A model generated the notes under the pieces. That model saw only the letters and a program-made list of their open reading frames with translations, was not told where the DNA came from and ran no database searches. The position numbers and the translations under genes were made by a program. A stretch of DNA of 61,209 bases, filler included. It is 6 parts of 6 records of this genome, joined end to end, with 100 filler letters (N's around TTAATTAATTAA, not from the genome) between each part and the next. Parts side by side here need not be neighbours in the genome. Positions count along the whole stretch, not along the records: positions 39,219 to 54,982 come from SRR31156797_30183; 5 more parts are not named here. The stretch is one strand, 5' to 3'. Shown in pieces: positions 35,811 through 54,982 of this stretch (within the stretch, counting starts at the first letter, position 1; each line of letters begins with the position of its first letter).

Positions 35811-35871
35811 TGAAGGATACAGTACACGCTAATTTGTAGCAGTGGAGTAGAGTTAAGCCTTCAGCAGCTTT

Positions 35872-35894
35872 ATGTGCGGCGTAAACGCCGCATA
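35872..35894 (+). other. GC-rich stem-loop downstream of the surface-protein gene
   Basis: ATGTGCGGCG-TAAA-CGCCGCATAT. Confidence 0.55.
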
Positions 35895-35909
35895 TGTTAT
35901 TTTACAAAT

Positions 35910-36385: not shown

Positions 36386-36623
36386 TTTTAGAAAAAACAA
36401 GAATGTTCGGAATACTAGCACGTATACATTTTTCTTTTGATTGCAAATTTTGAATCATTGGTATCCAGACAAACAATCAGATATTATATTATTTTCCATG
36501 GTAAATGCAAAAATTTATATCAGTTTACGTAATTACTATTAGAATAATTAAAAGGTTTAAGGATAGCCAGCTTCAATAAAGTTATTTTTTAACCTTTTAA
36601 AAACATGGGGTAAGGAAATAACA

Positions 36624-38261
36624 TTGGTTAGAAAAAGTGTGGATAACTACTCGAATATTGATATGTCAGATGTTCCAGATTCAGTAAAACGGGAATTATT
36701 CCAGAAGACTGCTCTTCTTTCTGGATTACTTAACTCAGTCCCGGACCTCGTTTTTTTCAAGGACAATGATGGTGTTTTTCTTTCCTGTAATGAAATGTTT
36801 TCCAGATATGTCGGAAAACCATTCAGTGAAATTATCGGGAAAACAAGCCATGATATCTTTGACAGGAACAGGGCAGATTTCTTTCGGTCTAATGATCGGA
36901 AAGTACTGGATACTGGCCAGTCCTATAAAAGTGTAGAATGGATTGACAGGGCAGATGGCAAAAAGGTACTTCTCGAAACATTCAAGGCTCCTATTTTCAC
37001 CGAAGATGATGAACTGCTGGGTGTAGTGGGTGTTGGTCGCGACATCACCGAGCGAAAATATGCTGAAATGGAACTCAAGGACAAGAAGAACGAATTGTTC
37101 CAGATAGTTAATGGTAGTCCTATACCTGCTTTTGTTATCGATAAAAATCACCAGGTGATCTATTGGAACAGAGCATGCGAAAATACAACAGGTATCAAGG
37201 CCAATGAAATAATAGGTACGCAGAATTCCTGGATGGCTTTTTACGATAAGCAGCGTGTTGTGCTTGCGGATCTTATTGTCAATGACTCGCTTAAAAGCAT
37301 AGAAAAAATGTATGGTGATAAGAAACTGCGTCCTTCTTTTGTAGAAGGAGGTTACCAGGCGGAAGATTTTTTCCCGACACTAGATAAATGGATCCTTTTT
37401 ACGGCAGCTCCCATCAGGGATCACAATAATGAGATTATGGGTGCCATTGAGACTCTACAGGACATAACTATATCAAAACAGGCTGAAAAAGCCATGCTTG
37501 ATGCTAAAATGCTTGCGCAGAACACTTCCCGTACAAAAAGTGAGTTTCTTTCTAATATGAATCATGAGCTGCGAACTCCCCTTAATCTGATCCTTGGTTA
37601 TGCAGATCTGCTTTTAATCCAGGAATCAGGTCAGCTCAATGAAGAACAGAGACATTATGCTGAAATTATAAAGTTTGCAGGTTCAAAGTTTTTGGATCTG
37701 GTCGATTCATTAATTTATATAGCAGAGATCGAAGAGGGAAAAATGGAACTTGATGCGGATATGTTCTCTTTCCCTGCTATGATATCAGACGTGAAAAAAA
37801 TGCTTGATCCCCATGCATCTAAAAAAGGTGTCAAACTCGAATTTGATGTTGAATCAAAGGTTGATGTCGTCTTTGCAGATAAGTGTAAGATAAAAAGCAT
37901 ATTGCACCATCTCATCAGTAACGGGGTTAAGTTTACTCCATCTGGTGGAACGGTATCTGTGATAGTGAGACAGAAGAAAGATGAAGCTCTGCACTTAATA
38001 GTAAAAGACTCTGGTATTGGCATATCAGAAGAAGATCAGGATAAGCTGTTCAATGCATTTGTACAGCTTGATTGCTCACTTAACAAAAAATATGAAGGAA
38101 CAGGACTTGGATTGAGCATCGTAAAAAAGTTTGTAGAAGTCCATGGAGGTAGTATTTCTCTGGATAGCAGGCTTGGAGCGGGAAGCACATTCGAAGTAAT
38201 ACTGCCTATATCAGAAGTAGATTGTGATGGTATAGAGACCAGAATATGTGACTCACTATGA
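36624..38261 (+). CDS. two-PAS sensor histidine kinase
   Basis: PAS/PAC (RDITERK, QDIT), H-box NMNHELRTPLN, N-box ISNGVKFT, DSGIGI, GTGLGL; start codon uncertain. Confidence 0.93.
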   Translation: MVRKSVDNYSNIDMSDVPDSVKRELFQKTALLSGLLNSVPDLVFFKDNDGVFLSCNEMFSRYVGKPFSEIIGKTSHDIFDRNRADFFRSNDRKVLDTGQSYKSVEWIDRADGKKVLLETFKAPIFTEDDELLGVVGVGRDITERKYAEMELKDKKNELFQIVNGSPIPAFVIDKNHQVIYWNRACENTTGIKANEIIGTQNSWMAFYDKQRVVLADLIVNDSLKSIEKMYGDKKLRPSFVEGGYQAEDFFPTLDKWILFTAAPIRDHNNEIMGAIETLQDITISKQAEKAMLDAKMLAQNTSRTKSEFLSNMNHELRTPLNLILGYADLLLIQESGQLNEEQRHYAEIIKFAGSKFLDLVDSLIYIAEIEEGKMELDADMFSFPAMISDVKKMLDPHASKKGVKLEFDVESKVDVVFADKCKIKSILHHLISNGVKFTPSGGTVSVIVRQKKDEALHLIVKDSGIGISEEDQDKLFNAFVQLDCSLNKKYEGTGLGLSIVKKFVEVHGGSISLDSRLGAGSTFEVILPISEVDCDGIETRICDSL

Positions 38262-38332
38262 GCTCTGAAAATTATAGTTTGGTAGTAATTTAGTAGCAGT
38301 TTAATAATAATTTAATAATAACTTAGTAATTT

Positions 38333-38737
38333 TCAAAGCAGTTCGTCTTCTTCAATTTCAACATCCAGTACCTCTAGTGATATTTCCTCACCACTGCCAT
38401 TGAAACATTTCCAGTTATCAGGACCATATGGGTGTCCTACAATAATGTGATGATTACCGGTTTTGCTAAATAGCCGCAGGTCTGCTTTTGAAGGCCTTAT
38501 AACCGAACTTGGATGACTGTGAACAGACCCCACAGCTGATATGTTTGGCATCATAAACAGCTTGAGAACCGCGTTTATCTCACTGGATTCAGTACCGGGA
38601 AGTATCAAAATATCTGTAATTATGCCGTCTTTTGCCTGCATAAGACCTGCAAATTCCTTTGGATATGTGGAACTGCTAACCTCCATTATAAAATCGAGTG
38701 TTTCCTTTGCAATTCCCCTGATTTTTTGTTTCATCAT
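38333..38737 (-). CDS. JAMM/MPN+ (Mov34) metalloprotease
   Basis: PKEF plus GSVHSHPS....PSKAD JAMM motif. Confidence 0.9.
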   Translation of the reverse strand: MMKQKIRGIAKETLDFIMEVSSSTYPKEFAGLMQAKDGIITDILILPGTESSEINAVLKLFMMPNISAVGSVHSHPSSVIRPSKADLRLFSKTGNHHIIVGHPYGPDNWKCFNGSGEEISLEVLDVEIEEDELL

Positions 38738-38833
38738 ATGTTTGTATTCAGGGAGAACATATAACTTTTTTGAAAACTATATTTTCTACAGGTATCTGCT
38801 TATTGTTAGAAGGAATATTCGGGAGTGTTCAAA

Positions 38834-39118
38834 ATGGATAAAAAGTTTCAGGGTTCGATGTGTAAAGAAGGCGATAATACATTAGGTGAACGGTCACTGG
38901 AACTGCACAAAAAAGCCAGTGGTGTAATAGGGGTATGTGCAAAGGTTCCTCTGAACAACATAGAGGATCTGAGTCTGGCTTATACCCCGGGAGTTGCCGA
39001 ACCCTGTAAAAAGATAGCCGCCGATCAAAACAGCGCTTACCGTTATACCATGAAAAAGAATACAGTGGCTGTGATCTCGGATGGTTCTGCGGTACTTGGT
39101 CTTGGAAATATAGGAGCA
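38834..39118 (+). CDS. NAD(P)-dependent malic enzyme (3'-truncated)
   Basis: DLSLAYTPGVAEPC, NTVAVISDGSAVLGLGNIG. Confidence 0.92.
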
Positions 39119-39218
39119 NNNNNNNNNNNNNNNNNNNNNNNNNNNNNNNNNNNNNNNNNNNNTTAATTAATTAANNNNNNNNNNNNNNNNNNNNNNNNNN
39201 NNNNNNNNNNNNNNNNNN
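39119..39218. other. artificial contig linker
   Basis: N-run with TTAATTAATTAA. Confidence 0.99.
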
Positions 39219-39220
39219 AT

Positions 39221-39297
39221 GTCAAGGTAGCTCAGCTGGCTAGAGCGCTGGTCTCATAAGCCGGAGGTCGAGAGTTCAAGTCTCTCTCTTGACACCA
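39221..39297 (+). tRNA. tRNA with CAT anticodon (probably elongator Met; Ile2 not excluded)
   Basis: Acceptor stem GTCAAGG/TCTTGAC, D-arm GCTC-AGCTGGCTA-GAGC, anticodon loop CTCATAA, T-loop GTTCAAGT, encoded CCA. Confidence 0.93.
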
Positions 39298-39361
39298 TTA
39301 TAACTAACCCTTACAAAATCAATTTTAATAAACTTTTTGATATGAACTCAAAGTTATAATT

Positions 39362-39859
39362 TTACTTATCTTCCTCATCTAAACTAATATACATAAGTAA
39401 ATACGCCGTATCTTCAGGGGTCCATCTTATTTCTCTTTCCAAATCCATTAAGTTACTATCTTTACTCACTCCATTGTTAAATCTATTGGCTACTTCAAAA
39501 GCTTTATTATGAATCTTTTTTTTACCAGAATATATAATGAAAGTTGGAATAATATCTTCGATTTTTTCAATATGAAAAATAGATCCATCTTTTATATATC
39601 TCAATAATAGACCAACTTGTAAAGAATGGTACTCTTTTTCCCGTAATTTCTCTAAAGGTTTATCTTTATATCCAACTGCTCTAAATGTATCAAACTCCTC
39701 TTTTACAAAATCTCGTAAGTTATCATTGTCATATTTTTCCAATGATGGAGGTAATGAAATATCTGATCGAGTCATCTTATCAAGATCTATTTTTTTTCTT
39801 GGAGGGTTGGCTCCTGTAGCATCTTTCACTTTTCCAACTATTTTATCAATAAAGCTCAT
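39362..39859 (-). CDS. hypothetical protein
   Basis: 165-aa ORF with AAGGAG RBS; no family recognised. Confidence 0.7.
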   Translation of the reverse strand: MSFIDKIVGKVKDATGANPPRKKIDLDKMTRSDISLPPSLEKYDNDNLRDFVKEEFDTFRAVGYKDKPLEKLREKEYHSLQVGLLLRYIKDGSIFHIEKIEDIIPTFIIYSGKKKIHNKAFEVANRFNNGVSKDSNLMDLEREIRWTPEDTAYLLMYISLDEEDK

Positions 39860-40120
39860 AAGTATCTCCTTTATATACTTTCAATAAAATATAATTATAT
39901 AATAACTTTTAATGAAAGACAATAAATATACTTTTAAATTGATATAAATATTTCCCTATTTCTATCCTCTTAGCTATTTATGTCATCTGTTTTGTGACAT
40001 TATTTATAGTAACATATCTTGTATTCTTCTATTTTATAGTGATTGCTAAAGCATTAACTCTAAATGATAAGCATTGTGCTATAATACATCGATATATAAA
40101 AAGGATACTAAAAACATCAT

Positions 40121-40252
40121 ATGAAAAAAACAGACTATATTTTTTGGACTATTTTAGGGTTGATCGCTCTTTTTTATCTTTTAAAAGGGAATGATATGCA
40201 TACTGAAAAATATCAAATGATCCAATCAGCACAAGTAGAGAATAAAAACTAA
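40121..40252 (+). CDS. 43-aa single-TM small protein (absent from ORF track)
   Basis: MKKTDYIFWTILGLIALFYLLKGNDMHTEKYQMIQSAQVENKN*; TGCTATAAT at 40077-40085 and AAGGA at 40101-40105; stops 4 nt from the galE stop. Confidence 0.55.
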   Translation: MKKTDYIFWTILGLIALFYLLKGNDMHTEKYQMIQSAQVENKN

Positions 40253-40256
40253 GTCT

Positions 40257-41318
40257 TTATCTATATCCATTTGGATTATTGCTTTGCCACCTCCAGCTGT
40301 CTTCGCACATTTGTTCAAGTGAATATTTTGCTTCCCACCCCAATATCTCTTTTGCATAAGATGGATCTGCATAATACTGAGCAATATCACCTGCTCGTCT
40401 AGCTACTATTTTATAGGGGATTTTTTTACCACTTACTTTTTCGAAGGCTTTCACCACATCTAATACACTATATCCAACACCTGTACCAAGATTTACAATA
40501 AGTGGTTTTTTATTTTCTATAGAGTTTAGATAATTGATCGCTTTTACATGACCACCTGCTAAATCTACCACATGGATATAATCTCTAATACCAGTTCCAT
40601 CATATGTATCATAATCATTTCCAAAAATATTTAAAAATTCTCTTTTGCCTACTGCAACTTGAGAGATAAATGGCATAAGGTTATTTGGTATAGTATTAGA
40701 ATCCTCACCTATCAATCCGCTTTGATGAGCCGCTACAGGATTAAAGTATCTTAAGATAGCTATTTTAAAAGAATTATCACTGATATAAAGATCTTCAAGG
40801 ATTCGTTCTATCATATACTTACTTGTACCATAAGGATTTGCCGTCCTACCTGCTGGAAAACTCTCTTTAATACCGACATGGTGATTTGATGATATATCTT
40901 TAGATACTTGAACAGTTTTAAAACACCCTTCCCCGTAAACTGTTGCACTTGAAGAGAAAACTATTTTTTTACAAGAAAACTCTTTCATTACCTCTAAAAG
41001 CTTGATAGTCCCTATCACATTAGTATCATAATATTCTAAAGGATTAGCTACAGATTCTCCAACGGCTTTTAATCCTGCAAAGTGGATCACAGAATCAATA
41101 CTATAATTGGAAAAAACCTCTTTTAAAGCTTTGGTATCTCTTATATCTCCTTGTATAAAAAAGACCTGTTTTTTTATAATTTTTTCAACTCTTTTTATTG
41201 CTTCAAAAGAAGAGGTAGCAAGATTATCATACACTATAAAGTGATATCCAGCACATGAGAGCTCCACTAAGGTATGAGTTCCTATATATCCAGCTCCTCC
41301 AGTAATTAAAATATTCAT
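40257..41318 (-). CDS. galE: UDP-glucose 4-epimerase
   Basis: TGGAGYIGTH, HFAGLKAVGES, FSSSATVYG, PYGTSK, LRYFNP, PNNLMP, DGTGIRDYIHVVDLA, WRWQSNNPNGY. Confidence 0.96.
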   Translation of the reverse strand: MNILITGGAGYIGTHTLVELSCAGYHFIVYDNLATSSFEAIKRVEKIIKKQVFFIQGDIRDTKALKEVFSNYSIDSVIHFAGLKAVGESVANPLEYYDTNVIGTIKLLEVMKEFSCKKIVFSSSATVYGEGCFKTVQVSKDISSNHHVGIKESFPAGRTANPYGTSKYMIERILEDLYISDNSFKIAILRYFNPVAAHQSGLIGEDSNTIPNNLMPFISQVAVGKREFLNIFGNDYDTYDGTGIRDYIHVVDLAGGHVKAINYLNSIENKKPLIVNLGTGVGYSVLDVVKAFEKVSGKKIPYKIVARRAGDIAQYYADPSYAKEILGWEAKYSLEQMCEDSWRWQSNNPNGYR

Positions 41319-41324
41319 CGTACT

Positions 41325-42170
41325 TTACTTGAAGTTTTCTTGTGGTTTTTCATCAATAAAATCGCAGCATACGATATCTACATCTTTTTGTACTAACTCA
41401 TTATATTCTAATCTATTTTGAGCTGAAAAAACAGAAATAGTGATAGAGTGAGATTTGTAATATTGGATGATCTTACGATTTAAAAAATATTTAGGGATAC
41501 AGATCCCTCCCCCATTTTTTGATAAGATTGATATTAGTTCAGTAGAAAGTTTGTGTGAGAAATAAGCATGCTGAAATCCTATCCCTTTTTTATGAAGTAG
41601 TGACTTATAAGACTTACTACCTATTATAATAAAATGGCTAAATGGTATCCTATTGATTCTAATTAATCGGCTTAAAAAACCAAAATATAAAGGTATAGGG
41701 ATATAAAATAGTATTTTTGGTATTTGAGCATCTAAATGATGAAGCTTAATCAGAGTTTGTGGAATCCATGAACCAAAATAAATGTGCTCTTTTAAAGAGT
41801 GTTTTTGTATCAATTCTAAATGGCTTGCTTCAAATCCATGATCTTTTATATCTATTAAAAGCTTTTGAGTTTTATTTTTTCTTTGGGAAAAAATAGCAAG
41901 AAGAGTATCTAAAGTAATAATTGAAAGATTATATTTCTCTATAAAATTTAAAATATCTTTAGCACTATTATTTGTGATAGATAAAAAGTGTTTTTCTTTT
42001 TTGATCTTATCATCATGATGGACAAAGATTACTCCATCTTTTGAAACTCTTGTATCAATTTCTAAAAAAGGGATATTAGTTTGTGTAGCCAATCTCATTG
42101 ACAATAAGGTATGTTCACATTTATCAAACCCTCTTAAACGATGGCTCAAAAAATTTCTATCATCAATCAT
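41325..42170 (-). CDS. glycerophosphodiester phosphodiesterase (GDPD) family protein
   Basis: SHR..G...EHTL, LEIDTRVSKDGVIFVHHD, LIDIK, terminal VDIVCCD. Confidence 0.8.
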   Translation of the reverse strand: MIDDRNFLSHRLRGFDKCEHTLLSMRLATQTNIPFLEIDTRVSKDGVIFVHHDDKIKKEKHFLSITNNSAKDILNFIEKYNLSIITLDTLLAIFSQRKNKTQKLLIDIKDHGFEASHLELIQKHSLKEHIYFGSWIPQTLIKLHHLDAQIPKILFYIPIPLYFGFLSRLIRINRIPFSHFIIIGSKSYKSLLHKKGIGFQHAYFSHKLSTELISILSKNGGGICIPKYFLNRKIIQYYKSHSITISVFSAQNRLEYNELVQKDVDIVCCDFIDEKPQENFK

Positions 42171-42493
42171 AAGCAATTACTTTATGAATATACTCTGTCA
42201 TCACTCATTCACTATATTTAATTTATCACTTCACATTGTAATCAACTTCAACTTATTATTAGATTTAATTAAGTGACCACTCCTTAAGACTATCAAATAC
42301 TCTTATAAATAATAAAAATAGTTTTATAACTTTTATTAACTACATTAAGATCATACTAAGGGTTTAAATGGTAGATTTTTCATAGAATAAAATATTAAAA
42401 AAAATTATAACTTTAATAGATAAAGTATTACTATTTCTTAAAAGGTATTGATAGTGTTTTTAACAAATTTGATCAATTATATAAAGTTTATCT

Positions 42494-43615
42494 ATGCAGT
42501 ATGATGTATCAGTTGTAACTACTGCATCTTTACCTTGGCGAACAGGCCCCTCATTTTTATCCCTTTGGCATGCTTCAGGATTAAGTAATCAAGGGCTGAG
42601 TGTTGCTTATATTATTCCATGGCTATCCCCAAAAGATCAAAAAAAGCTATATCAGAAAATCTACTTTGAAACTCAGGAAGAACAAATATCTTGGTTAAAA
42701 ACTGAAATAACCCGTTTAAATATGACAAGTGTCCCCCAAATACTTTTTTATCCTGCCTCTTATTTTTCATCTCTTCGAAGTATTCTCCCAAAAAACAATA
42801 TTTTTTCATCTATTCCACAAAGTGATAAGATAGTTTTAGAAGAGCCTGAACATCTCTGCTGGCATCCATTTACATCAAAAAAGAAACTCTCTTCAAAGAG
42901 TAAAATAATAGGTTGCGTATATACAAACTATGAGTACTATATTTCAAATGCCATGCCCAAAGGCCTAAAAGGCTTAAGTGGTTTAATAGAGAGTTGGAAT
43001 CGTTCTTTGATGAAAAAATATACAGATATGATTTTAAGTATTTCTCCTGCTGTAAATCTTGAAACCCTTTCACATCCACATGAGGAAGCTAGAATAACAG
43101 GAGTATTGGAGCCTTATTTTAACGTTCCTTCTGTTTTAGAAGAAGAGAAAAGAGTCTATTTTCTAGGTCGTCTTGTTTGGGATAAAGGTTTTGATATGCT
43201 TATAAAGATCTCTTCTAAACTGCATCTGCCTATAGACGTATATGGCGATGGACCAGATGAACTTTCTATTAAAGAGGCTTCTAAAAAAGAGGGAGCTTTA
43301 TTATCATTTAAAGGTCCCTCTTCAAGTCCATGGGAACTATTGTCAAATTATAAAGTTTTTTTTAATCCATCTCTAAGTGAAGTGTTATGTACTGCAACTG
43401 CTGATGCCTTAGTTGCAGGTCGTTTTGTGGTTCTGCCAAAATGCCATGCTAACAAACCTTTTATAAAATATAATAATACTTTTTTTTATGAAAGTTTTGA
43501 TGAAGCATTAGATATGATTGAAAAAGCCATGGGCTCTCAACCAAAATCACCAGAGAAAATTCGATATGATTTTGCATGGGAAAATGCTTGTAAAACTTTA
43601 AAGAGTTATTTTTAA
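42494..43615 (+). CDS. plant-type (DGD1/DGD2-like) digalactosyldiacylglycerol synthase, GT4
   Basis: VVTTASLPWRTG, IPWL, FYP....RSILP, VLEEPEHLCW, IG.VYTNY, G.LVW.KG, VYGDG.D, YKVFFNPS.SEVLCT.TA.AL..G, W: collinear with DGD motifs recalled from plants. Confidence 0.82.
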   Translation: MQYDVSVVTTASLPWRTGPSFLSLWHASGLSNQGLSVAYIIPWLSPKDQKKLYQKIYFETQEEQISWLKTEITRLNMTSVPQILFYPASYFSSLRSILPKNNIFSSIPQSDKIVLEEPEHLCWHPFTSKKKLSSKSKIIGCVYTNYEYYISNAMPKGLKGLSGLIESWNRSLMKKYTDMILSISPAVNLETLSHPHEEARITGVLEPYFNVPSVLEEEKRVYFLGRLVWDKGFDMLIKISSKLHLPIDVYGDGPDELSIKEASKKEGALLSFKGPSSSPWELLSNYKVFFNPSLSEVLCTATADALVAGRFVVLPKCHANKPFIKYNNTFFYESFDEALDMIEKAMGSQPKSPEKIRYDFAWENACKTLKSYF

Positions 43616-43632
43616 ATTAGGAGATAAAATAG

Positions 43633-44820
43633 ATGAAAAAAAGTACTGAAAAAATAATTGATTTAATGTATGAAGCGGTGCCTGAAGCTAGCTTTGAAGT
43701 TCGTTTTTGGGATGATGAGATAATTTCAAGAGGTAATGGTCCTGCTCAATTTCAACTATGGTTTAAAACAAAAACTGCTCTAGGGAGAGTTTTTTCAGAT
43801 GCTTTTTTAGGCTTTGGGGAAGAGTATATGACCAAAAATATTGAAGTTGATGGAGACATACAATTACTTTTTAAAATGGGAACATTTATTGGGATGGGGG
43901 ATAATCAAGTATCCTTTATGGAAAAACTCCGTTTTTTAGCTCTATTTATAGCAAATCAAAATACTTTAAAAGGTTCTAAAAAAAATATTGCCCATCACTA
44001 TGACTTAGGAAATGACTTCTATAGTCTTATTTTAGGTCCTACTATGGCATATACTTGTGCATATTTTAAAACACCTGAAGATTCAATAGACCAAGCCCAA
44101 CTCAATAAATTTGATCATGTTTGTAAAAAACTTGATCTAAAAGAGGGGGAAACTCTAGTTGATCTTGGTTGTGGATGGGGTGGATTCCTTATTTATGCTG
44201 CACAAAACTATGGTATTACAGGAGTTGGTGTCACTATTTCTCAAATGCAATATGACTATGCAGTCAATCGAATCAAAGAACTAAACCTTGAAGATAAGAT
44301 TCGTATAGAACTAAAAGACTTTAGAGAATTAACGGGGCAGTATGATAAACTCAGCTGTATTGGTATGATAGAACATGTAGGAAAAAAATTTATGCCTACC
44401 TTCGCAAAAAAAGTAAAAGAACTTTTAAAACCAACAGGTATTGGCCTTGTACATTATTTAGGAAATGATACACCATACCCTGAAGATCCTTGGACTGTAA
44501 AATATATATTTCCTGGAGCAGAGATCTCTCCTTTAGCTCTGGTTATTGAAGCATTAGCAGAGGAAGAGTTAAGTATTTTAGATGTGGAAAACTTACGTCG
44601 ACATTATGCAAAAACTGCACAATGCTGGCTTGATAAATTCAATGAGAATCTCGATACTATAAGGGATATGTATGGAGAGACTTTTATTAGACAATGGCAT
44701 ATCTATCTGAATATTGGTTACATCTCTTTTGAATATGGGGGAAATAGGTTATTTCAAATTCTAATTTCAAATGGAGTAAATAACGACTATCCTATAACAA
44801 GAGATCATATCTATGTGTAA
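43633..44820 (+). CDS. cfa: cyclopropane-fatty-acyl-phospholipid synthase family SAM methyltransferase
   Basis: LGFGEEYM, NIAHHYDLGNDFY, TMAYTCAYF, DLGCGWG, GMIEHVG, KYIFPG, ENLRRHYAKT. Confidence 0.9.
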   Translation: MKKSTEKIIDLMYEAVPEASFEVRFWDDEIISRGNGPAQFQLWFKTKTALGRVFSDAFLGFGEEYMTKNIEVDGDIQLLFKMGTFIGMGDNQVSFMEKLRFLALFIANQNTLKGSKKNIAHHYDLGNDFYSLILGPTMAYTCAYFKTPEDSIDQAQLNKFDHVCKKLDLKEGETLVDLGCGWGGFLIYAAQNYGITGVGVTISQMQYDYAVNRIKELNLEDKIRIELKDFRELTGQYDKLSCIGMIEHVGKKFMPTFAKKVKELLKPTGIGLVHYLGNDTPYPEDPWTVKYIFPGAEISPLALVIEALAEEELSILDVENLRRHYAKTAQCWLDKFNENLDTIRDMYGETFIRQWHIYLNIGYISFEYGGNRLFQILISNGVNNDYPITRDHIYV

Positions 44821-44840
44821 GATGAAAGTGAGTCAAAATT

Positions 44841-46001
44841 TTGAAAAGTAAAGTTTCCATTCTTTATACCGTGGCAGGTGGTGGTCACCTAGCAGCAGCA
44901 AAAGCTCTAAAAGTAGTACTTGAAAGCTCTGGTCGTTATGAGGTAAGTTTGGTAAACCCTTATCGAGAGATCATTGATGAGCTAGATTTTTTTAAATCCA
45001 CCTCTTATGAGAATGGAGAAGAGATCTATAATAAATTTATCCAAGAAAAAGGACATACTGGATTTTTATGTCTTCTTTTTTATGGGATTGTTATAGGAAG
45101 CACCTATCTAAGACGAAAAAAAGGGATCAAACTCTTTGAAGAACATTGGGAAAAAACAAAACCAGATCTAATCATTTCAGTTATGCCTATGTTAAATACA
45201 GGGATAGTTTGGACACTTGAACATTTTGATATTCCATTCATGGTACTTATGACTGACCTGAGAGAGCCTTCAAAATATACTTGGTTTCCAAAAAGTAATG
45301 AACCCACTGTTTTGTGTGGGACAAAAGATGCCTATGAAGATGGTCTAAAAAAACCTCATCCTAAAGAGAATACTCATCTTTTATCAGGACTTGTTGTAAA
45401 CCCTTCTTTTTATGATCAAGACCCTCTTGATATTAAAAAAGAGCGAGTTGTGAGTGGATTAAAAGAAAATCTAATAACTGCTTGTATTTTGTATGGAGGA
45501 TCAGGATCAGATAGAATGGTAGAACTTGCAAAAGTTTTACAAGATACACACTCTTTTGATAAAGAGTTTCAGATCATTTTTTTATGTGGTCGATCTCAAG
45601 CTGTAGCCCAAAAGATCAAGGCTTTAAAACTTTCTTTTTCTCATATTATTGTAGGGTATACAGATAAAATCCCTTATTATATACAGCTTGCAGATTTTAT
45701 GATAGGAAAACCTGGTCCTGGGTTTATTAGTGAATCACTGGTGATGAAACGTCCTCTTTTAATTGATCGTAAAAATGTATTACTACAAGAACATTATAAT
45801 ATCCAATGGCTGGATACCCATAATATGGGAAGCTCTTTTAAATCTTTAAGTTCCTTTAAAAAAGAGTTTAATGAGCTTTTAGACTCAGATAAACTACATT
45901 TAATACAACAAGAGGTCAATAAACACTCTAATCAAGCAGTCTTTGAAGTTTTACCAATAGTTGACTCTGTTATGGAAAAACACTATTCGTCGAAAGAATG
46001 A
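44841..46001 (+). CDS. MGDG synthase / UgtP-like GT28 diacylglycerol glycosyltransferase
   Basis: AGGGHLAAAKAL, KPDLIISV.P, MTDL..WF, GLVVNPSFY, YGGSG, CGR, GYTDKI, DFMIGKPGPG.ISE, QE.YN. Confidence 0.85.
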   Translation: MKSKVSILYTVAGGGHLAAAKALKVVLESSGRYEVSLVNPYREIIDELDFFKSTSYENGEEIYNKFIQEKGHTGFLCLLFYGIVIGSTYLRRKKGIKLFEEHWEKTKPDLIISVMPMLNTGIVWTLEHFDIPFMVLMTDLREPSKYTWFPKSNEPTVLCGTKDAYEDGLKKPHPKENTHLLSGLVVNPSFYDQDPLDIKKERVVSGLKENLITACILYGGSGSDRMVELAKVLQDTHSFDKEFQIIFLCGRSQAVAQKIKALKLSFSHIIVGYTDKIPYYIQLADFMIGKPGPGFISESLVMKRPLLIDRKNVLLQEHYNIQWLDTHNMGSSFKSLSSFKKEFNELLDSDKLHLIQQEVNKHSNQAVFEVLPIVDSVMEKHYSSKE

Positions 46002-46017
46002 TTTTGAAAGAAAACGT

Positions 46018-46662
46018 ATGGAATTTATAACTATCCCAACAGAACAAACCACAGCAGCAACTGATTTTATATTAGGACTTATGGCACTATTTTTTGCCTT
46101 CAAATTTAAATCGTCATCCCAATACTCTTTTGGGATTAAGATCTGGCGCCTGATCTTTCTTTTATTTGCTATTGGAGCTTTTTTAGGAAGTATTTTTCAT
46201 GGTCTTGTTTTAGAACAAGAGATAAAAGTCATACTTTGGTTTTCACTTCTTTTTTCTTTTGTTATCGTTGTTTCATTATTTGTTATTGCGATGATTTATG
46301 ATCTTAAAGGGGAACAGAGTGCTAAAAAACTTCTTCTTCCAATTTTTAGTGTAGGTGGTGTAGTATATGGCATAATGCTTCTTTTTTCTGGAAAATTTAT
46401 TATTTTAATAGGGTATGAAGTACTTGCAATGCTAAGTGCATTGATAGGGTATTTTATCGGAGCTTTAAAAACAAAAACACAAGATATGTGGTTTATGACA
46501 TTAGGAGTACTTATTACAATTATTGCATCGGCAGTGCAAGCATTAAGTGATATTGTCATTGAATTTATTTGGATATTTGATAAAAATGGAGTTTTTCATC
46601 TTATTCAAATTGTCGCTATTTTATGTTTTATTTATGCATTTAAATTAAGAAAGTGGGTATAG
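46018..46662 (+). CDS. multi-pass (about 7 TM) membrane protein, DUF6962-like
   Basis: EQTTAATDFILG, LGSIFHG, AVQA, NGVFHLIQ; start at MEFITIP assumed. Confidence 0.6.
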   Translation: MEFITIPTEQTTAATDFILGLMALFFAFKFKSSSQYSFGIKIWRLIFLLFAIGAFLGSIFHGLVLEQEIKVILWFSLLFSFVIVVSLFVIAMIYDLKGEQSAKKLLLPIFSVGGVVYGIMLLFSGKFIILIGYEVLAMLSALIGYFIGALKTKTQDMWFMTLGVLITIIASAVQALSDIVIEFIWIFDKNGVFHLIQIVAILCFIYAFKLRKWV

Positions 46663-46665
46663 TTT

Positions 46666-46674
46666 TGATACAAT
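46666..46674 (+). promoter_or_regulatory. extended -10 promoter for the desaturase gene
   Basis: TGATACAAT followed by AAGGAG RBS and ATG at 46700. Confidence 0.5.
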
Positions 46675-46699
46675 CTCTTATTAAACTTAAGGAGACCAT

Positions 46700-47617
46700 A
46701 TGATAGATAAATCTTATTATGAAGTTGATGTGGCTCGATTTTATCGAGATCTAATTTTATATAGTTTTGTTTTCGTAGTAACGTTTAGTGCGTGTTTTTA
46801 TCTCAGTGGTATATGGTTTGTACTATCTTTAATTATATCAGCATCAGCGATCCATCATGCAGCGTGTTTTGTTCATGAATTGACACATCAATCACGTAAT
46901 AAAAAACTTAAAACCTTCGCTATCATTTGGAACGCAACTATAGGAGCTATTGCTTTAGTACCTTATGTTCGTTTTATTAAACCTCATATTATGCACCATA
47001 CAATTGGGATTTTTGCAACAGAAGAAGATCCCCAATATGTTCTGCTACGAAAATCTAAATGGTTGTACTTTTTAGTCTTGTTTGTTGTTCCTTTTATTGC
47101 ACCTTTTTATAACTTCTTACTCGTAGTAACTGCAAGTATTCCTGGAGTTGATGTGGAAGCAAAAGTTGATGCTTATCTTGCACAATGGAAACTTCAACTA
47201 GCAGGAGAGCTCGAACCTGATCATAAAAGATCAGTAACATTATGGAGTCGATACTATCTAGTTTTATTTATATTCTATATTAGTTTTTTTCCTGAAACTT
47301 TTTGGGTATATTATGCAGTTCAAGTTGTTGCATGGATGTTAACATCTTGGAGAGTTCCTCTTGAACATCGTTTAGAAAAACATATAAAAGAATCAAATGA
47401 ACATGATCAAATGTATGATAGTTTTACAGTAGAATCACCATATGCAGATTTTCTTCAGCCTTTATCTTTACAGTTTCACACAGCTCATCATATGTACCCA
47501 GGCGTGCCTTATCACAATTTACCAAAACTCCATAGAGCTCTAAAAGAGAGTAATGAAGAGTATAGAAATAGTATAGTCTCATTTAAAACTGCTGTCATTG
47601 GGAAAGGAAGAGAATGA
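46700..47617 (+). CDS. membrane fatty acid desaturase family protein
   Basis: Three His boxes: HELTH, HIMHH, FHTAHH(MYPGVPYHNLPKLH). Confidence 0.88.
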   Translation: MIDKSYYEVDVARFYRDLILYSFVFVVTFSACFYLSGIWFVLSLIISASAIHHAACFVHELTHQSRNKKLKTFAIIWNATIGAIALVPYVRFIKPHIMHHTIGIFATEEDPQYVLLRKSKWLYFLVLFVVPFIAPFYNFLLVVTASIPGVDVEAKVDAYLAQWKLQLAGELEPDHKRSVTLWSRYYLVLFIFYISFFPETFWVYYAVQVVAWMLTSWRVPLEHRLEKHIKESNEHDQMYDSFTVESPYADFLQPLSLQFHTAHHMYPGVPYHNLPKLHRALKESNEEYRNSIVSFKTAVIGKGRE

Positions 47618-49152
47618 CTAATGCCCAAAAAGTATTAGAGCTTCAAAATTATATTTTGTTTAAAGGATTTTCAACTGAAGAGTTGGAAATATTTGCAGAT
47701 ACTATTGAGGTAAAGAGTTTTTCAAAAGGGGAATATCTCTTTCATGAAAATGATACTTCTAAAGAGGTCTATTTGATACGATCAGGAAAAGTAGAAGTGG
47801 TCTTTGAAAATCAACATGAGCATTTAAAAGAGTTTTTCTCAAAAGGTGATATTGTTGGTGAACTTGCGATGCTTGATGGAGTTCCAAGAAGTAATAGCGT
47901 AGTGTGTATAGAAGATACCGTTACTTTTACCCTAGAAGTTTCAAAACTCCCTCTTACCTTAACACTTCTAAATCGTTTAAATGTCAATATTGCCTTGGTC
48001 ACTGCATATAAACTAAGACATCAACATATAGAAGATGATATTTTACTTACTGATGAGATACCACAGAATATCAAAGAGTTACGACGATTTTCGATGCTAG
48101 CTCAATTAACAGATCAAGAACTTTTGATTTTACATGATGTATTAGAAACAAAAATATTACAACCACAAGAGTATCTTTTTTATGAAAATGACTCTTCCAA
48201 TGAGATCTACTTTATCCAATCAGGTGCCTTTGATATCATTAAATCAGATGCATCAGGAGATGAGCAAATCATTGCTACAGTACAAGAGGGAAATGTTGTA
48301 GGAGAATTGGCTTTTTCTGATGGAGCTCCAAGATCAGCTTCTGTACGAGCACAAAATGAAAGTGAAGTACTTATCTTAAATATCAATCATCTCCCTAGTA
48401 ATTTAGCACTCTTAAATCGTCTTGCAAATCATATCACTCAAATGAGTTCACAACATGTGCGTCATACCAATGCTGAACATGTGGAGAGTTTAAAGCGTGA
48501 ATTAAAATCTGAACAGTTACGAAATGACTTTGGTAAGTTTTTTATCTATACCTTAGGTGTCTTTTCAATCGGTACTTTGGTCAATTACTTTTTACATACC
48601 TATTTACAATCATTAAATGTCTATGGAGAGCTCTTTAAATGGAGTTATCTTTTTATCCTACTTGTTCCATCTCTTCTTGTTATTTGGAAGATGAATATCC
48701 CTTTAGAGGAGCTTGGACTTACTCTTAAAGGATGGAAAAAATCTTTAAAAGAAGGAGTTATAGTCTCTTTGGTCTTTAGTGCTGTACTTATTGGTTCCTT
48801 TACTCTGATTATTCAACCTTTATATGATATTCCCACAAAGGTTGTTGAGTATCAGTTTTGGGGATCGATTGGATATATTATCCACTCAGCCTTACAAGAG
48901 ATGCTTGCAAGAGGGGTATTACAATCTTCGTTTAGAAGATTCTTCAATGATAAAAAAGGGATCAATTCTGTTTTACTCACCGCAGCACTTTTTGGTATAT
49001 TTCATATCCATTTTGGACTCTTTGCAGTTTTAGCTACAATGGTCACTGGTATCTTTTTTGGATTATTATATTTAAGACATCAAAACTTAATAGGGGTAAC
49101 AATTTTCCATACAGTATCTGGAATAGCGGCATTTTCTCTTGGAGTTTTATAA
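47614..49152 (+). CDS. tandem cNMP-binding domains fused to a CAAX/CPBP (Abi-family) intramembrane protease domain
   Basis: GELAMLDGVPRSNSV and GELAFSDGAPRSASV; C-terminal TMs with QEMLARG, FGIFH, FH. Confidence 0.82.
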   Translation: MTNAQKVLELQNYILFKGFSTEELEIFADTIEVKSFSKGEYLFHENDTSKEVYLIRSGKVEVVFENQHEHLKEFFSKGDIVGELAMLDGVPRSNSVVCIEDTVTFTLEVSKLPLTLTLLNRLNVNIALVTAYKLRHQHIEDDILLTDEIPQNIKELRRFSMLAQLTDQELLILHDVLETKILQPQEYLFYENDSSNEIYFIQSGAFDIIKSDASGDEQIIATVQEGNVVGELAFSDGAPRSASVRAQNESEVLILNINHLPSNLALLNRLANHITQMSSQHVRHTNAEHVESLKRELKSEQLRNDFGKFFIYTLGVFSIGTLVNYFLHTYLQSLNVYGELFKWSYLFILLVPSLLVIWKMNIPLEELGLTLKGWKKSLKEGVIVSLVFSAVLIGSFTLIIQPLYDIPTKVVEYQFWGSIGYIIHSALQEMLARGVLQSSFRRFFNDKKGINSVLLTAALFGIFHIHFGLFAVLATMVTGIFFGLLYLRHQNLIGVTIFHTVSGIAAFSLGVL

Positions 49153-49172
49153 CTCTTTTGAGAGATAAATCT

Positions 49173-49181
49173 TGCTATAAT
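49173..49181 (+). promoter_or_regulatory. extended -10 promoter upstream of the RND gene
   Basis: TGCTATAAT, then GAGGA RBS. Confidence 0.55.
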
Positions 49182-49219
49182 TATATACAATTGAATAGAA
49201 ATAATGAGAGGAATGATTA

Positions 49220-52200
49220 GTGATTAAATACATTATAGAGTTTGGTTTAAAAAAACCTATACTCAACTATATGCTTTTACTTTTTATCTTTATCCTCTCG
49301 GTCTTTGCCTATTTAAAGATTCCAAAAGAGATTTTTCCAATCTCAACACTTGATGCTATCAATATTACAGGAACTTATGCAGGTGCAAGTAGTGATATTC
49401 TTGATCGTATGGCTGTCTCAAAAATAGAAGATGAGCTAGCTAATTTAAGTGAAGCAGATACTATCTCAACGGTTGTGAAAACTGGATACTTTAATATAAA
49501 GATCGATCTAAAAGATGGGAAAAATCTTTCAAAAACAATCGATGATGTAAAAGACATTATCTCTACTATACGATCAGACCTACCAAGTGATATGGATGAA
49601 CCTATCGTCAAAGAGGTAACCCAAGCCTTTCCGCTTATTACTGTTTCCATATCTGGTTCAGATTCTACTGAAGAGCTTTTAGATATAGCAGATGATATCA
49701 AAGCAAAACTCAATAGTTTAGGGGATTTAAGTGAACTCAATATTTGGGGGAAAAGTGATAAAGAACTTTTAATCACACTTGATGAGAAAAAAATAGAAAC
49801 CTATGGGTTTGATAAGCAAAACATAATTAACCTCATCTCTCAAACAAGCTCTATATTTCCCGCTGGAATCATAAAAGATAAAGGGATACACTATTATCTT
49901 AGCTCACAAAATGGAGAAAAAGATTTAAAAAAGATCTCCCAAACCCTTTTAAAAATCAATAATAAAACCATCTATTTAAAAGATATAGCAAAAGTAGAAT
50001 ATAAACTTGCAGATGTAAGTACACTTTCACATTTTAATGGGAAAAAAAATATCTCAATTGGGATAAATAAAGGGAAAACCGGAGATAGTATCACTCTTGT
50101 AAAGCAGATAAAACAGATACTAAAAGAGGAAGCTCCAAACTATAAAGGGATCACCTTTGATACTTATGGTGATACTTCTATTTGGATAAAGAATAGACTA
50201 AATACCGTTGTATCAAATATCCTTTTTGGAGTTATTCTACTTACTGTTGCTCTTTTTTTCTTTATCAATGCCAGAATAGCTTTTATAGTTGCTATTGGGA
50301 TACCAACAAGTTTTATGATAGGACTTATAAGTGCCGAACAACTTGGATATAGTCTCAATATGCTCTCTTTATTGGGTGCTTTACTTGCTCTTGGAATGCT
50401 GGTAGATGAAGCTATCGTTGTAGGAGAAAATATCTACCGTCATATGGAGATGGGGAAAGATAAAATGACAGCAGCTCTTGATGGAGCTGTGGAGATGTAT
50501 CCTGCTGTTTTAACAGCAACAGCAACAACAGTATTTGCTTTTTTACCAATTTTAATGATGACTGGAGAGACGGGAGTATTTATGAGAATACTCCCTATTA
50601 TGATCACTATTTTACTTCTAAGTTCCCTCTTAGAAGCTTTTTTCTTTTTACCCCTACATGCACAACATACATTAAAAGTAAATCATGAAGAGAAACGATC
50701 TGAACGTATTTGGGATTTTAATAAAAAGCTTTACTATTCAATTCTTTCTTTTGTACTACGATGGAAATATATAGCCGTTATACTTTTACTTTCAGTTATC
50801 ATTGGCTCTACAATATTTTTTGCAAAATTATTGAAATTTGAGTTTTTACCAGAGTTTGATTCAACACAGGTTTATATAAGTGGTTCAGTAGGAGTTGGTC
50901 ATGATATTAATGATACAGAGGAAAAGGTTCGTCATATTGAGAAAAAACTTCTTGAGAACTTTGAACTTGGACGAGATATTGATAGTTTTAGTTCCGTAAT
51001 GGGAGTAAAACTTGATGGGAAACAGCTTCCTCAAAATGAAGAATTTTATTTTCAATTCTTCGTCTCTTTAAAAGAGAGAGCACCTACAAATGTTTTTGAT
51101 AAATATATCAATCCATATTTAAGTCCTAAATATGATGCTACAGATATGACAAGAGAACTAAGCGCTCAAACCTTATCAGCACAAATCTCAAAAGTACTTG
51201 AAGAGGAGCAAAACTCACAAGAGTTTAGTGAATTAACCATTAGTGTGCCTGGAGCTGGTATCGTAAAATATGATATTGAGATATCTCTTAGTGGAGATGA
51301 TGATAAAAAACTCTCCCATGCAATCAAAACCCTTAAAAGTAAACTTAGCTCTATAAAAGGGGTTGAGAATATTGCAGATGATATTCTAGTAGGAAATCTT
51401 GATCTAAAATTTAGTGTTAATCATTATGGGCAACAACTAGGCTTCAATGAAACAACTCTAGTCAATACTTTAAAACCATACTATTTTAAAGGAACTTTTT
51501 CAAAGATGTATGATCAAAGTGGGATTGTAGATATTGTATTTCAAAGTAAAGATAAAGATCAAAAAGAGAGTCTAGATAGTTTTGAAGTGGTAGTTCCAAA
51601 TAGTACACAAAAAGTACTTTTAAAAGAGATTGTTGATTTTCAAACTTTCCCTAGCCTTTCACAAATATTTAAAGAGGATGGAACAGCGATCCAAACTATC
51701 ACAGCATCTTTAAATGGTATCACAAGTGAAGAGGTATTTGCCCAATTAGATCCTACATTAAAAGCTCTTGAAAAAGATGTAAGAATAGATATCAAAGGGG
51801 AAGAGAAAGAGAATCAAAAAGTAAAAACAGAAATGATGCAAGCATTTATCATCGCTCTGATCTTAATCTTTATCTCACTTGTATGGATGTTTGATTCACT
51901 TATAAAATCATTTATCATTTTAAGTACTATTCCTCTTTCAGTACTAGGAGTACTTGTGGGACATTTTGTTATGGGACTTAATCTTAGTATGCCAGGGCTG
52001 ATTGGAATTGTAGGACTTGCAGGAGTTGTGGTAAATGATGGGATCATTATGATGGATTTTATTAAAAAGGCCAAAGATCTTGAAGAGATGAAACAACTTG
52101 CACTTTTACGTCTTCGACCAATTTTACTTACTTCACTTACTACACTTTTAGGACTCTGTACCCTGATATTTTTTGCCTCAGGACAATCTTTGATCCTACA

Positions 52201-52306
52201 ACCTATGGCAGTAGCGTTAGGATTTGGTATCCTTTGGGCTACTATCTTAAATCTTTATTATGTACCTATGGTTTATAGAATTATCTATTTACGAAAAGCT
52301 TCCTAG
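49220..52306 (+). CDS. AcrB/RND-family permease
   Basis: 1028 aa; GMLVDEAIVVGENI, GVVVNDGI, RLRPILLTSLTT, QPMAVALGFG. Confidence 0.94.
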   Translation: MIKYIIEFGLKKPILNYMLLLFIFILSVFAYLKIPKEIFPISTLDAINITGTYAGASSDILDRMAVSKIEDELANLSEADTISTVVKTGYFNIKIDLKDGKNLSKTIDDVKDIISTIRSDLPSDMDEPIVKEVTQAFPLITVSISGSDSTEELLDIADDIKAKLNSLGDLSELNIWGKSDKELLITLDEKKIETYGFDKQNIINLISQTSSIFPAGIIKDKGIHYYLSSQNGEKDLKKISQTLLKINNKTIYLKDIAKVEYKLADVSTLSHFNGKKNISIGINKGKTGDSITLVKQIKQILKEEAPNYKGITFDTYGDTSIWIKNRLNTVVSNILFGVILLTVALFFFINARIAFIVAIGIPTSFMIGLISAEQLGYSLNMLSLLGALLALGMLVDEAIVVGENIYRHMEMGKDKMTAALDGAVEMYPAVLTATATTVFAFLPILMMTGETGVFMRILPIMITILLLSSLLEAFFFLPLHAQHTLKVNHEEKRSERIWDFNKKLYYSILSFVLRWKYIAVILLLSVIIGSTIFFAKLLKFEFLPEFDSTQVYISGSVGVGHDINDTEEKVRHIEKKLLENFELGRDIDSFSSVMGVKLDGKQLPQNEEFYFQFFVSLKERAPTNVFDKYINPYLSPKYDATDMTRELSAQTLSAQISKVLEEEQNSQEFSELTISVPGAGIVKYDIEISLSGDDDKKLSHAIKTLKSKLSSIKGVENIADDILVGNLDLKFSVNHYGQQLGFNETTLVNTLKPYYFKGTFSKMYDQSGIVDIVFQSKDKDQKESLDSFEVVVPNSTQKVLLKEIVDFQTFPSLSQIFKEDGTAIQTITASLNGITSEEVFAQLDPTLKALEKDVRIDIKGEEKENQKVKTEMMQAFIIALILIFISLVWMFDSLIKSFIILSTIPLSVLGVLVGHFVMGLNLSMPGLIGIVGLAGVVVNDGIIMMDFIKKAKDLEEMKQLALLRLRPILLTSLTTLLGLCTLIFFASGQSLILQPMAVALGFGILWATILNLYYVPMVYRIIYLRKAS

Positions 52307-52330
52307 GATAAACACTTTTTCTGTAAGGAT

Positions 52331-54981: not shown

Positions 54982-54982
54982 A

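Follow-up and report, generated by a model that had tools for sequence, protein, structure and literature searches.

A conserved bacterial gene cluster with DGD-like and MGD/UgtP-like glycosyltransferases, predicted to make and tailor a diglycosyl-diacylglycerol

Introduction

Few membrane lipids on Earth are as abundant as the galactolipids of chloroplasts. Their plastid pathway relies on MGD1-3, of glycosyltransferase family GT28, and on DGD1/2, of family GT4, with UDP-galactose provided by UGE/GalE-type epimerases. In this study, we analysed a stretch of DNA of 61,209 nucleotides (nt), hereafter the window, and within it a gene cluster at positions 40257-49152 that encodes a relative of each of these two glycosyltransferases. 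Probably, these genes form a membrane-lipid operon, conserved among bacteria, whose products build a diglycosyl-diacylglycerol and modify its acyl chains.

Proteobacteria produce non-phosphorus glycosyl-diacylglycerol (glycosyl-DAG) lipids under phosphate stress by PlcP-Agt and by the Pgt and Agt enzymes of Agrobacterium and Mesorhizobium, some of which are GT4 proteins. We take these glycosyltransferases to be of lineages other than those of the cluster. Unlike the PlcP-Agt systems, the loci inspected here hold no PlcP-type gene and no consistent Pho box, and our literature search gave no PlcP-Agt or Pgt system with desaturase, Cfa, DUF6962, or cyclic-nucleotide-binding CPBP (cNMP-CPBP) partners. 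Rhodobacter sphaeroides is said, from work by Benning in 1995, to make an alpha-glucosyl-(1,4)-beta-galactosyl-DAG when phosphate is limiting; presumably, then, the order of beta-galactose followed by an alpha-hexose exists in Alphaproteobacteria.

Closer to the cluster in enzyme family are the Roseiflexus enzymes RcMGD, RcMGlcD, and RcDGlcD and the Firmicutes enzymes UgtP/YpfP, which belong to the same GT28 family as the GT28 of the cluster. The Roseiflexus homologues vary in donor (UDP-galactose or UDP-glucose) and in processivity, and the available part of that article describes these systems neither with a DGD-type GT4 partner nor with a cluster of this kind (Yuzawa 2012, PMC3276260). Cyanobacterial MgdA/MgdE/DgdA yields the same product class, diglycosyl-DAG, and DgdA is likewise a GT4 enzyme, according to the available part of Sato (2021). 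That route differs in its first enzyme, MgdA of family GT2, after which an epimerase works on the lipid itself, whereas the cluster uses a GT28. The same source gives DgdA as unlike DGD1 in domain structure; the PDB match of the window GT4 is DGD2 and not a DgdA-type protein, in a comparison in which the PDB coverage of DgdA was unchecked. Sato and Awai (2017) and Sato (2021), in the available parts, argue against a cyanobacterial origin for any of the galactolipid enzymes of plastids. Prokaryotic DGD1 homologues occur in some proteobacteria, with donor and recipient undecided (Sato 2019, J Plant Res, PMC6946739, in part); they are almost certainly of the family of the cluster GT4, and the available text of that article does not give their gene neighbourhood, residues, or function. 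In a full-text literature search, we found no description of the cluster, which had been put forward as undescribed, or of the lipids of its carriers; the supplementary trees of Sato may list some of the same bacteria.

Materials and methods

All coordinates are those of the whole window. For the synteny analysis, a pattern scan was carried out on one genome per species (185,579 species), and a gene was counted as linked when it lay within 10 kb of the DGD-like gene. DUF6962 was counted by profile because a single-sequence phmmer search gave only two loci.

To map residues of the DGD-like protein, 22 bacterial and 11 eukaryotic sequences were aligned with MAFFT; the contacts were taken from the DGD2 structure article (PMC12022483). 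The phylogenetic tree was a quick IQ-TREE run on 60 DGD-family rows and is unrooted.

Results and discussion

Gene layout of the cluster

A preliminary description, drawn up from the sequence alone, had named eight genes, with short gaps or overlaps between them, in two divergent units. Pfam, NCBIfam, and PDB matches recovered all eight where they had been placed, together with two further genes downstream:

40257-41318, minus strand: galE, UDP-glucose 4-epimerase (TIGR01179 428 bits, cut-off 262; PRK10675 433 bits, cut-off 394)
41325-42176, minus strand: glycerophosphodiester phosphodiesterase (GDPD)-like gene (PF03009 38.9 bits, cut-off 23.6, residues 20-60 only)
42177-42493: divergent intergenic region, 317 nt, AT-rich
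42494-43615, plus strand: DGD-like GT4 glycosyltransferase (P0001; PDB 8p6s, DGD2, E = 1.2e-50)
43633-44820, plus strand: Cfa-family S-adenosylmethionine (SAM)-dependent acyl-chain methylase/cyclopropanase (PF02353 1.3e-80; DUF7884)
44841-46001, plus strand: MGD/UgtP-like GT28 (P0002; PDB 4wyi, MGD1, E = 8e-16)
45961-46662, plus strand: open reading frame (ORF) of the DUF6962 membrane protein, likely ATG at 46018 (PF22285 2.7e-37)
46700-47617, plus strand: membrane fatty-acid desaturase (PF00487 1.4e-25)
47614-49152, plus strand: two cNMP-binding stretches and a CPBP/Rce1-like domain (PF00027 5.8e-40, two stretches; PF02517 2e-13)
49220-52306, plus strand: RND permease, 67 nt past the cNMP-CPBP gene (PF00873 2e-142)
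52331-53230, plus strand: second epimerase/dehydratase-like gene of the extended short-chain dehydrogenase/reductase (SDR) type, 24 nt past the RND gene (PF01370 5.7e-25)

The spacing agreed with the description as well. galE and the GDPD-like gene are 6 nt apart, and the gaps of the plus-strand unit, from the GT4 to the cNMP-CPBP gene, are 17, 20, 16, 37, and -4 nt. Presumably, both units have their promoters in the 317-nt spacer; a sigma-70 scan of it gave 80 sites against 76 expected, not above shuffles, and the promoter and terminator scan likewise showed no excess over shuffles. The RND permease and the second SDR gene, for which no NCBIfam model rose above its cut-off, may extend the same transcript, and the permease might possibly serve in lipid export; both suggestions are uncertain.

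The DGD-like GT4

The best PDB match of the GT4 protein, Arabidopsis DGD2 (8p6s), extended over residues 4-367; the second-best match had an E value of 0.12. A profile of the 22 bacterial homologues gave 4.6e-80 for DGD2 versus 3e-6 for the next PDB family, TarM. The homology thus spans the full DGD catalytic domain and is exclusive of other GT4 enzymes. In total, 487 homologues were found, with approximately 95 bacterial clusters at 34-74% identity and plant and algal DGD1/2 at 30-34%. The bacterial proteins are 373-425 amino acids long, without a DGD1-type N-terminal extension.

The UDP-galactose contacts of DGD2 include Thr21, Gly22, Lys238, Lys243, Asp313, and Glu321, and Asn26 and His151 bind the galactose O6', according to the available part of the structure article (PMC12022483). 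Thr21, Gly22, and Lys243 are invariant in the 22 bacterial sequences (T17, G18, and K231 in the window). Lys238 is replaced by Arg in 18 of them, Asp313 by Glu in all 22 (window E296), and the position of Glu321 holds Asp in 14 and Glu in 8 (window D304). The window protein therefore retains the UDP-binding core, that is, Thr21, Gly22, Lys243, and the acidic pair Asp313...Glu321. The lipid-acceptor pocket of DGD2 is an AlphaFold 3 model (PMC12022483, in part); of its residues, Ser103 is kept in 20/22 bacterial sequences and His129, Trp132, Tyr154, and Tyr157 in 21/22 each, while K101 is not kept (Leu in 15/22). Over the whole clade, mean column identity is 54%, and the 35 invariant columns include the equivalents of Gly22, Lys243, and Asp313 (as Glu).

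In the tree, the 43 bacterial rows formed one clade (SH-aLRT support 99) and the eukaryotic rows another, across long branches. The window protein paired with the 74%-identical metagenomic P0006 (97), and the pair was sister to all Pseudomonadota rows (85); the composition of the window sequence is unusual, and the long-branch rows P0100 and P0102 lie between the two clades. Since the tree is unrooted, the direction of gene transfer cannot be read from it. A metagenome scan with the DGD-like protein returned 32 further loci (L035-L066) of estuarine or marine origin, 27-36% identical and with a G+C content of 0.47-0.67. None of the other cluster genes lay near these 32 loci; our guess is that they are probably DGD genes of picoeukaryotic algae.

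The MGD/UgtP-like GT28

As a single sequence, the GT28 protein matched MGD1 (4wyi, 8e-16) and a processive DAG beta-glucosyltransferase (9wde, 1.5e-9) in the PDB. With a 29-sequence profile, MGD1 reached 1.1e-54 and 189 bits over the full length (positions 4-384) and 9wde 4.8e-39 and 138 bits, versus 5e-4 and 22 bits for MurG. The protein is therefore a full-length homologue of the MGD1/UgtP type rather than of MurG. It differs from the known bacterial GT28 DAG glycosyltransferases in the higher score for MGD1 than for 9wde and in a score far below the cut-off of the NCBIfam diglucosyl-DAG synthase model. An exhaustive search of representatives gave 3004 GT28 relatives, of which 124 had E <= 1e-30. 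Both H16 and E298 are unchanged across the 29 sequences; H16 aligns with the histidine of the GGGH motif and E298 with the Glu of 'GPGTIAEA' in 4wyi (Glu438 of MGD1). We take the GGGH histidine to be the catalytic His155 of MGD1. Glu438 is given as a ribose-binding residue in the available part of the structure article (PMC12022483). The 'DGD-like' and 'MGD-like' labels given to these genes beforehand were thus apt, and the assignment of the two glycosyltransferases, by homology, to the plant DGD and MGD/UgtP families is well founded.

Epimerase, acyl-chain, and membrane partners

The epimerase had been called GalE, and the score above the TIGR01179 equivalog cut-off bears this out. Linked epimerases of the related loci L015 and L006 also passed that cut-off, and those of L023, L001, and L002 are more distant SDR proteins. 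In a plasmid database, annotated GalE proteins from Bacillus, Priestia, and Aeromonas shared 56% identity with the window GalE.

The Cfa-family protein scored 271 bits with PF02353 (cut-off 27). The desaturase scored 91 bits with PF00487 (cut-off 29.7) and carries the HxxxH, HxxHH, and HxxHH boxes, with all eight histidines invariant in 26 of 26 aligned proteins; it had no PDB match, and the Atlas returned generic FA_desaturase clusters only. In many loci the desaturase gene lies directly 5' of cfa (in L015, for instance, the two overlap by 4 nt), an arrangement that would suit the sequential formation of a double bond and its methylation or cyclopropanation.

The CPBP domain scored 50.9 bits with PF02517 (cut-off 22.4). 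All 27 rows that have a residue at these positions share the motifs LQExxxRG (a QExxxR variant), FGxFH, and HxxxG. The canonical CPBP/Rce1 motifs are, we assume, EExxxR, FxxxH, and HxxxN, so that the first Glu and the Asn are replaced here.

In DUF6962, T15, G57, H61, and H194 are invariant in the alignment of homologues. Its AlphaFold2 model is a seven-helix bundle (predicted local distance difference test 84; predicted template modelling score 0.82), and among natural structures it comes closest to ACER3 (Z 14.9), AdipoR2 (Z 14.6), and Myomaker (Z 13.4), with Foldseek E values of 8e-3 to 3e-2. The seven-helix lipid hydrolases ACER3, PAQR-AdipoR, and TMEM8-Myomaker presumably constitute the CREST superfamily. 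By the same Z score, G-protein-coupled receptors (GPCRs) reached Z 13-14 and designed bundles Z 16, and T15, H61, and H194 could not be superposed on the zinc site. Because GPCRs score at Z 13-14, the modelled likeness to ACER3 and AdipoR2 is only a lead towards a lipid-hydrolase-like role. The full-text literature search gave no mention of DUF6962 or PF22285, and the cluster places both DUF6962 and the cNMP-CPBP fusion in a functional setting for the first time.

The preliminary description had counted the GDPD-like gene as a member of the cluster, a view that we abandon: no GDPD-like gene was found in any of the 34 related loci described below. The nearest Atlas clusters of the protein are GDPD (score 0.96), and the gene, a local addition particular to this contig, could recycle phospholipid head groups.

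Synteny across genomes

The scan returned 34 species loci with a DGD-like gene. All are from Pseudomonadota, mostly Alphaproteobacteria, many of these marine, and the carriers include Thalassobaculum, Thalassospira, Terasakiella, Roseibium, Stappia, Pseudodonghicola, Caenispirillum, Tistlia, Pararhodospirillum, and Breoghania, among others; gammaproteobacterial DGD-like homologues were also named in the homologue search. The co-occurrence for which such a search had been proposed was found, with the following linked genes:

GT28: 27/34 loci
cNMP-CPBP: 27/34 loci
DUF6962: 26/34 loci (profile matches of 235-317 bits; confirmed by Pfam in L001 and L015)
Desaturase: 25/34 loci
cfa: 18/34 loci
Lipid kinase of the YegS/DAG-kinase type: 16/34 loci (TIGR00147 passed in L023)
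Close GalE (E <= 1e-40): 15/34 loci
Small class-I SAM methyltransferase: 14/34 loci
RND permease: 5/34 loci

Seven of the 34 loci are short contigs, so some of the misses are due to contig ends. Seven loci had no linked GT28; five of these were checked genome-wide, and all five have one strong GT28 elsewhere (E 1e-118 to 1e-137). In Rhodospirillaceae bacterium Z3-40 (G001), this unlinked GT28 adjoins cfa and DUF6962. The two parts lie on contigs C27 and C25 (L070 and L075), with the DGD-like, cNMP-CPBP, and SDR genes on one and the GT28, cfa, and DUF6962 genes on the other, and this split suggests that the cluster consists of two sub-modules. Since the same families are clustered in most of the 34 genomes, the gene arrangement is not due to chance. 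In the loci inspected, all neighbours are lipid-related, and no lipopolysaccharide (LPS) or polysaccharide gene was seen.

Some features of the related loci have no counterpart in the window. The lipid kinase and the SAM methyltransferase (L023, 11138-12070; L015, 14230-15105 and 6043-6639) recur in the alphaproteobacterial clusters and are absent from the window, and in Roseibium and Stappia the YegS-type kinase lies between the DGD-like gene and the GT28. In L001, the closest genome locus (a Pseudomonadota metagenome-assembled genome), a carbamoyltransferase with NodU/CmcH-type domains (328-2109) adjoins the desaturase, a hint that the head group or the sugar is modified further in this lineage.

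Predicted pathway and alternative explanations

In the pathway that we propose, substrates, products, and the order of steps are all inferred from family membership, catalytic residues, and gene linkage across genomes. The GT28, an inverting enzyme of the MGD/UgtP family, would transfer the first hexose from a UDP-sugar onto DAG, and the retaining DGD-type GT4 would add the second sugar to the monoglycosyl lipid. GalE would supply UDP-galactose for at least one of the two glycosylation steps. The di-iron desaturase would introduce a double bond into an acyl chain, which the Cfa-family methylase would then methylate or cyclopropanate. DUF6962 and the cyclic-nucleotide-gated CPBP protein look like obligate membrane partners, and our guess is that a cyclic nucleotide might act through them to regulate or process the pathway.

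Several observations weigh against this proposal, whose lipid product is predicted from the genes. In the bacterial DGD-like sequences, Asn26 is replaced by Leu, Phe, or Ile in 21/22 (Leu22 in the window) and His151 by Met, Tyr, Thr, or Leu in 21/22 (Tyr143 in the window; Met in 17/22), whereas both residues are kept in 11 of 11 eukaryotic DGDs; the window GT4 accordingly lacks both side chains that contact the galactose O6'. Such an enzyme may use another donor or mechanism, or may be less active. The window GT28 reached 16.7 bits with the Pfam MGDG_synth model PF06925 (cut-off 25), a model with precomputed matches in some of its homologues, and 65 bits (cut-off 500) with the NCBIfam diglucosyl-DAG synthase model PRK13609, which is nevertheless its top NCBIfam match. 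The Cfa-family protein stayed below every NCBIfam cyclopropane-fatty-acid synthase equivalog cut-off (256-293 bits versus 400-650). Among 401 evenly sampled Alphaproteobacteria genomes, the DGD-like gene was found in two and a strong GT28 in three, with G001 the only genome to have both; the coupling of the two genes is thus not absolute, and the family is also rare. A Pho-box scan of 643 kb from the 34 loci gave 27 weak sites at no consistent position, and the window spacer has one weak Pho-box-like site at 42195 with three mismatches; a role in phosphate starvation is therefore unsupported.

The preliminary description had proposed a route from monogalactosyl- to digalactosyl-DAG (MGDG to DGDG) with acyl-chain tailoring. 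The logic of this pathway is the best-supported reading at the level of a diglycosyl-DAG with acyl tailoring. The bacterial DGD-like enzymes share the DGD fold, the UDP site, and probably the lipid acceptor site with the plant enzymes, and would handle the transferred sugar differently. Because the Asn26 and His151 side chains are replaced, galactose is not to be assumed as the second sugar, and 'MGDG to DGDG' is no more than one candidate route.

The acceptor could also be another lipid. It is rather unlikely, in our estimate, that both glycosyltransferases act on a ceramide, hopanoid, ornithine lipid, carotenoid, or polyprenol-linked intermediate and so yield another glycolipid or an envelope glycoconjugate. 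The GT28 profile gave its high scores for DAG-glycosylating enzymes and 22 bits for the polyprenol-lipid enzyme MurG, the pocket residues modelled for the lipid acceptor of DGD2 are conserved, and the linked genes include the DAG-kinase-type kinase, cfa, and the desaturase, with no sphingolipid, hopanoid, or LPS gene in the loci inspected. On the other side stand the breadth of the GT4 and GT28 families, the weak relationship of the GT28 to MurG, the altered donor pocket of the DGD-like clade, and the ceramidase-type folds nearest to DUF6962, although the ACER3 and AdipoR matches did not rise above the GPCR rows.

Quite unlikely is a division of labour in which only the GT28 makes a glycolipid, perhaps processively as in UgtP, and the DGD-like protein is weakly active, a scaffold or regulator, or directed to another substrate. 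The equivalents of His151, which is lost in nearly all bacterial members, are catalytically essential in the related GT4 enzymes teSPS and BshA (PMC12022483, in part); processive GT28 relatives exist, namely Roseiflexus RcDGlcD (Yuzawa 2012, in part) and, by its PDB title, 9wde; and two genomes of the 401-genome sample have a GT28 without a DGD-like gene. The strong conservation of the DGD-like clade nonetheless argues for a working active site, the replacement of His151 is systematic (predominantly Met) and unlike decay, and the DGD-like gene is retained in 34 species. Very improbable, and close to refuted by the synteny, is that the genes stand together through an error of assembly or binning, or by chance without forming a functional unit: the window does join six contigs with G+C contents from 0.31 to 0.48, and the sole run with this stretch may be its source, but the cluster lies wholly in one piece, with operon gaps of -4 to 37 nt and an identical contig of even depth (not independent), and the same families are linked in 25-27 of 34 independent genomes, several of them isolates.

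Comparison with the plastid pathway

The proposed diglycosyl-DAG operon resembles the plastid MGD1-3 and DGD1/2 pathway in using the same two families in the same logical order with a linked epimerase. The likeness extends to full-length homology to DGD2 and MGD1, the UDP-phosphate and ribose contacts, the lipid pocket, and the MGD-type histidine. The two differ in that the bacterial genes form an operon, the bacterial GT4 has neither the Asn26 and His151 contacts nor the DGD1 N-terminal extension, and the eukaryotic and bacterial DGD clades are separated by long branches. We know of no counterpart of DUF6962, cNMP-CPBP, or Cfa in the plant pathway.

The enzyme families and the existence of bacterial DGD homologues were known; what appears to be new is the conserved cluster, with its altered sugar pocket and its two unstudied membrane partners. 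The bacterial DGD homologues are not orphans. They belong to a conserved lipid cluster with an MGD/UgtP-type GT28, and the sugar pocket of their clade deviates in a systematic way. Roseibium, Terasakiella, Thalassobaculum, Thalassospira, and Pseudodonghicola include carriers that are in culture. Taken together, the linkage, the altered pocket, and the cultured carriers make the origin of plastid DGD and MGD approachable by lipidomics and genetics in bacteria. A bolder idea, which we regard as improbable, is that the module of GT28 and DGD-type GT4 is the living form of the gene pair ancestral to plastid MGD and DGD and that, with DUF6962 and cNMP-CPBP, it would constitute a new cyclic-nucleotide-controlled membrane-remodelling system. 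If this were true, a single operon-like source in bacteria would have given rise to both MGD and DGD, in place of two unrelated transfers.

Source contig and host

The window consists of six pieces joined by five N44-TTAATTAATTAA-N44 linkers, which were located by a script on the sequence at 9442-9541, 18800-18899, 30596-30695, 39119-39218, and 54983-55082. The pieces are as follows:

Piece 1, 1-9441: G+C 0.44
Piece 2, 9542-18799: G+C 0.42
Piece 3, 18900-30595: G+C 0.35
Piece 4, 30696-39118: G+C 0.39
Piece 5, 39219-54982: G+C 0.314, 15,764 bp, contains the entire cluster
Piece 6, 55083-61209: G+C 0.48

Readings that span several pieces are unsafe. Genes are cut at piece ends, as seen for an EF-Tu-like GTPase (29711-30643) and an MBOAT gene (54247-54957).

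A single Logan contig of 15,712 nt matches 39271-54982 with zero differences and an even depth of approximately 220. The assembly behind it has 1.53 million contigs (915 Mb) and is therefore a metagenome. Only one public run has all sampled words of 42400-49200, and no RNA dataset is among such runs. Since the matching run is possibly the source of the stretch, the Logan contig is not independent support. For nine of nine window proteins, no exact copy was found in the protein collection.

A Campylobacterota-like host had been proposed. By tetranucleotide z-scores, pieces 2, 3, and 4 are alike (r 0.70-0.81), and piece 5 correlates with all others at r 0.37-0.59; it is closer to two Campylobacterota plasmid loci, of Arcobacter (0.80) and Sulfurovum (0.72). 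The best plasmid matches of the RND permease are in Sulfurovum mangrovi and Arcobacter cloacae (37.5% identity; 489 and 459 bits), followed by a match of 225 bits. For a cluster on a metagenome contig of its own, the two reference loci and the one gene are no more than weak hints of such a host. The Campylobacterota plasmid loci with the best RND matches do not carry the cluster. Plasmid-database searches with GalE, MBOAT, and the second SDR protein gave no host signal, and the ORF at 53224-54231 had no match there. Nor is the cluster confined to this host, since every one of the 34 related genomes belongs to the Pseudomonadota.

A Plebeiibacterium-type host, suggested by a polynucleotide phosphorylase (PNPase) with 94% identity to that of Plebeiibacterium marinum, was dropped because the PNPase gene sits on piece 3, from which nothing certain follows about piece 5. 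This PNPase (18961-20994) is 99% identical to one on a 5.75-Mb contig and 92-94% identical to those of Plebeiibacterium, Labilibacter, and Saccharicrinis (Marinilabiliaceae). Pieces 1, 5, and 6 lie outside the tetranucleotide signature of pieces 2-4.

Other observations

Of the three strong GT28 genes in the 401-genome sample, one is in genome G246 (unpublished) and one has an in-frame TAA. The latter, G204:C1:2204429-2205559, is a GT28 homologue with E 2.5e-134 and may be a copy in decay; the search of G204 gave no DGD-like gene.

At the start of piece 5 lies a tRNA-Met (CAT) gene (39221-39297, plus strand; ARAGORN; Rfam RF00005, 64 bits), noted for context only. Piece 1 has phage-like genes, with an HK97-type portal gene (1759-3750; TIGR01537 9.5e-62) and a DnaG-like primase domain (7854-9146). 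Piece 2 encodes an ATP-dependent DNA ligase (13088-14779), whose top NCBIfam model is haloarchaeal LigA (650 bits versus a cut-off of 830). Piece 4 encodes a protein of 1544 amino acids with PKD, Big_13, and FlgD-Ig repeats (31176-35810), which is followed by a sensor histidine kinase of 545 amino acids (36624-38261) and a JAB-domain gene.

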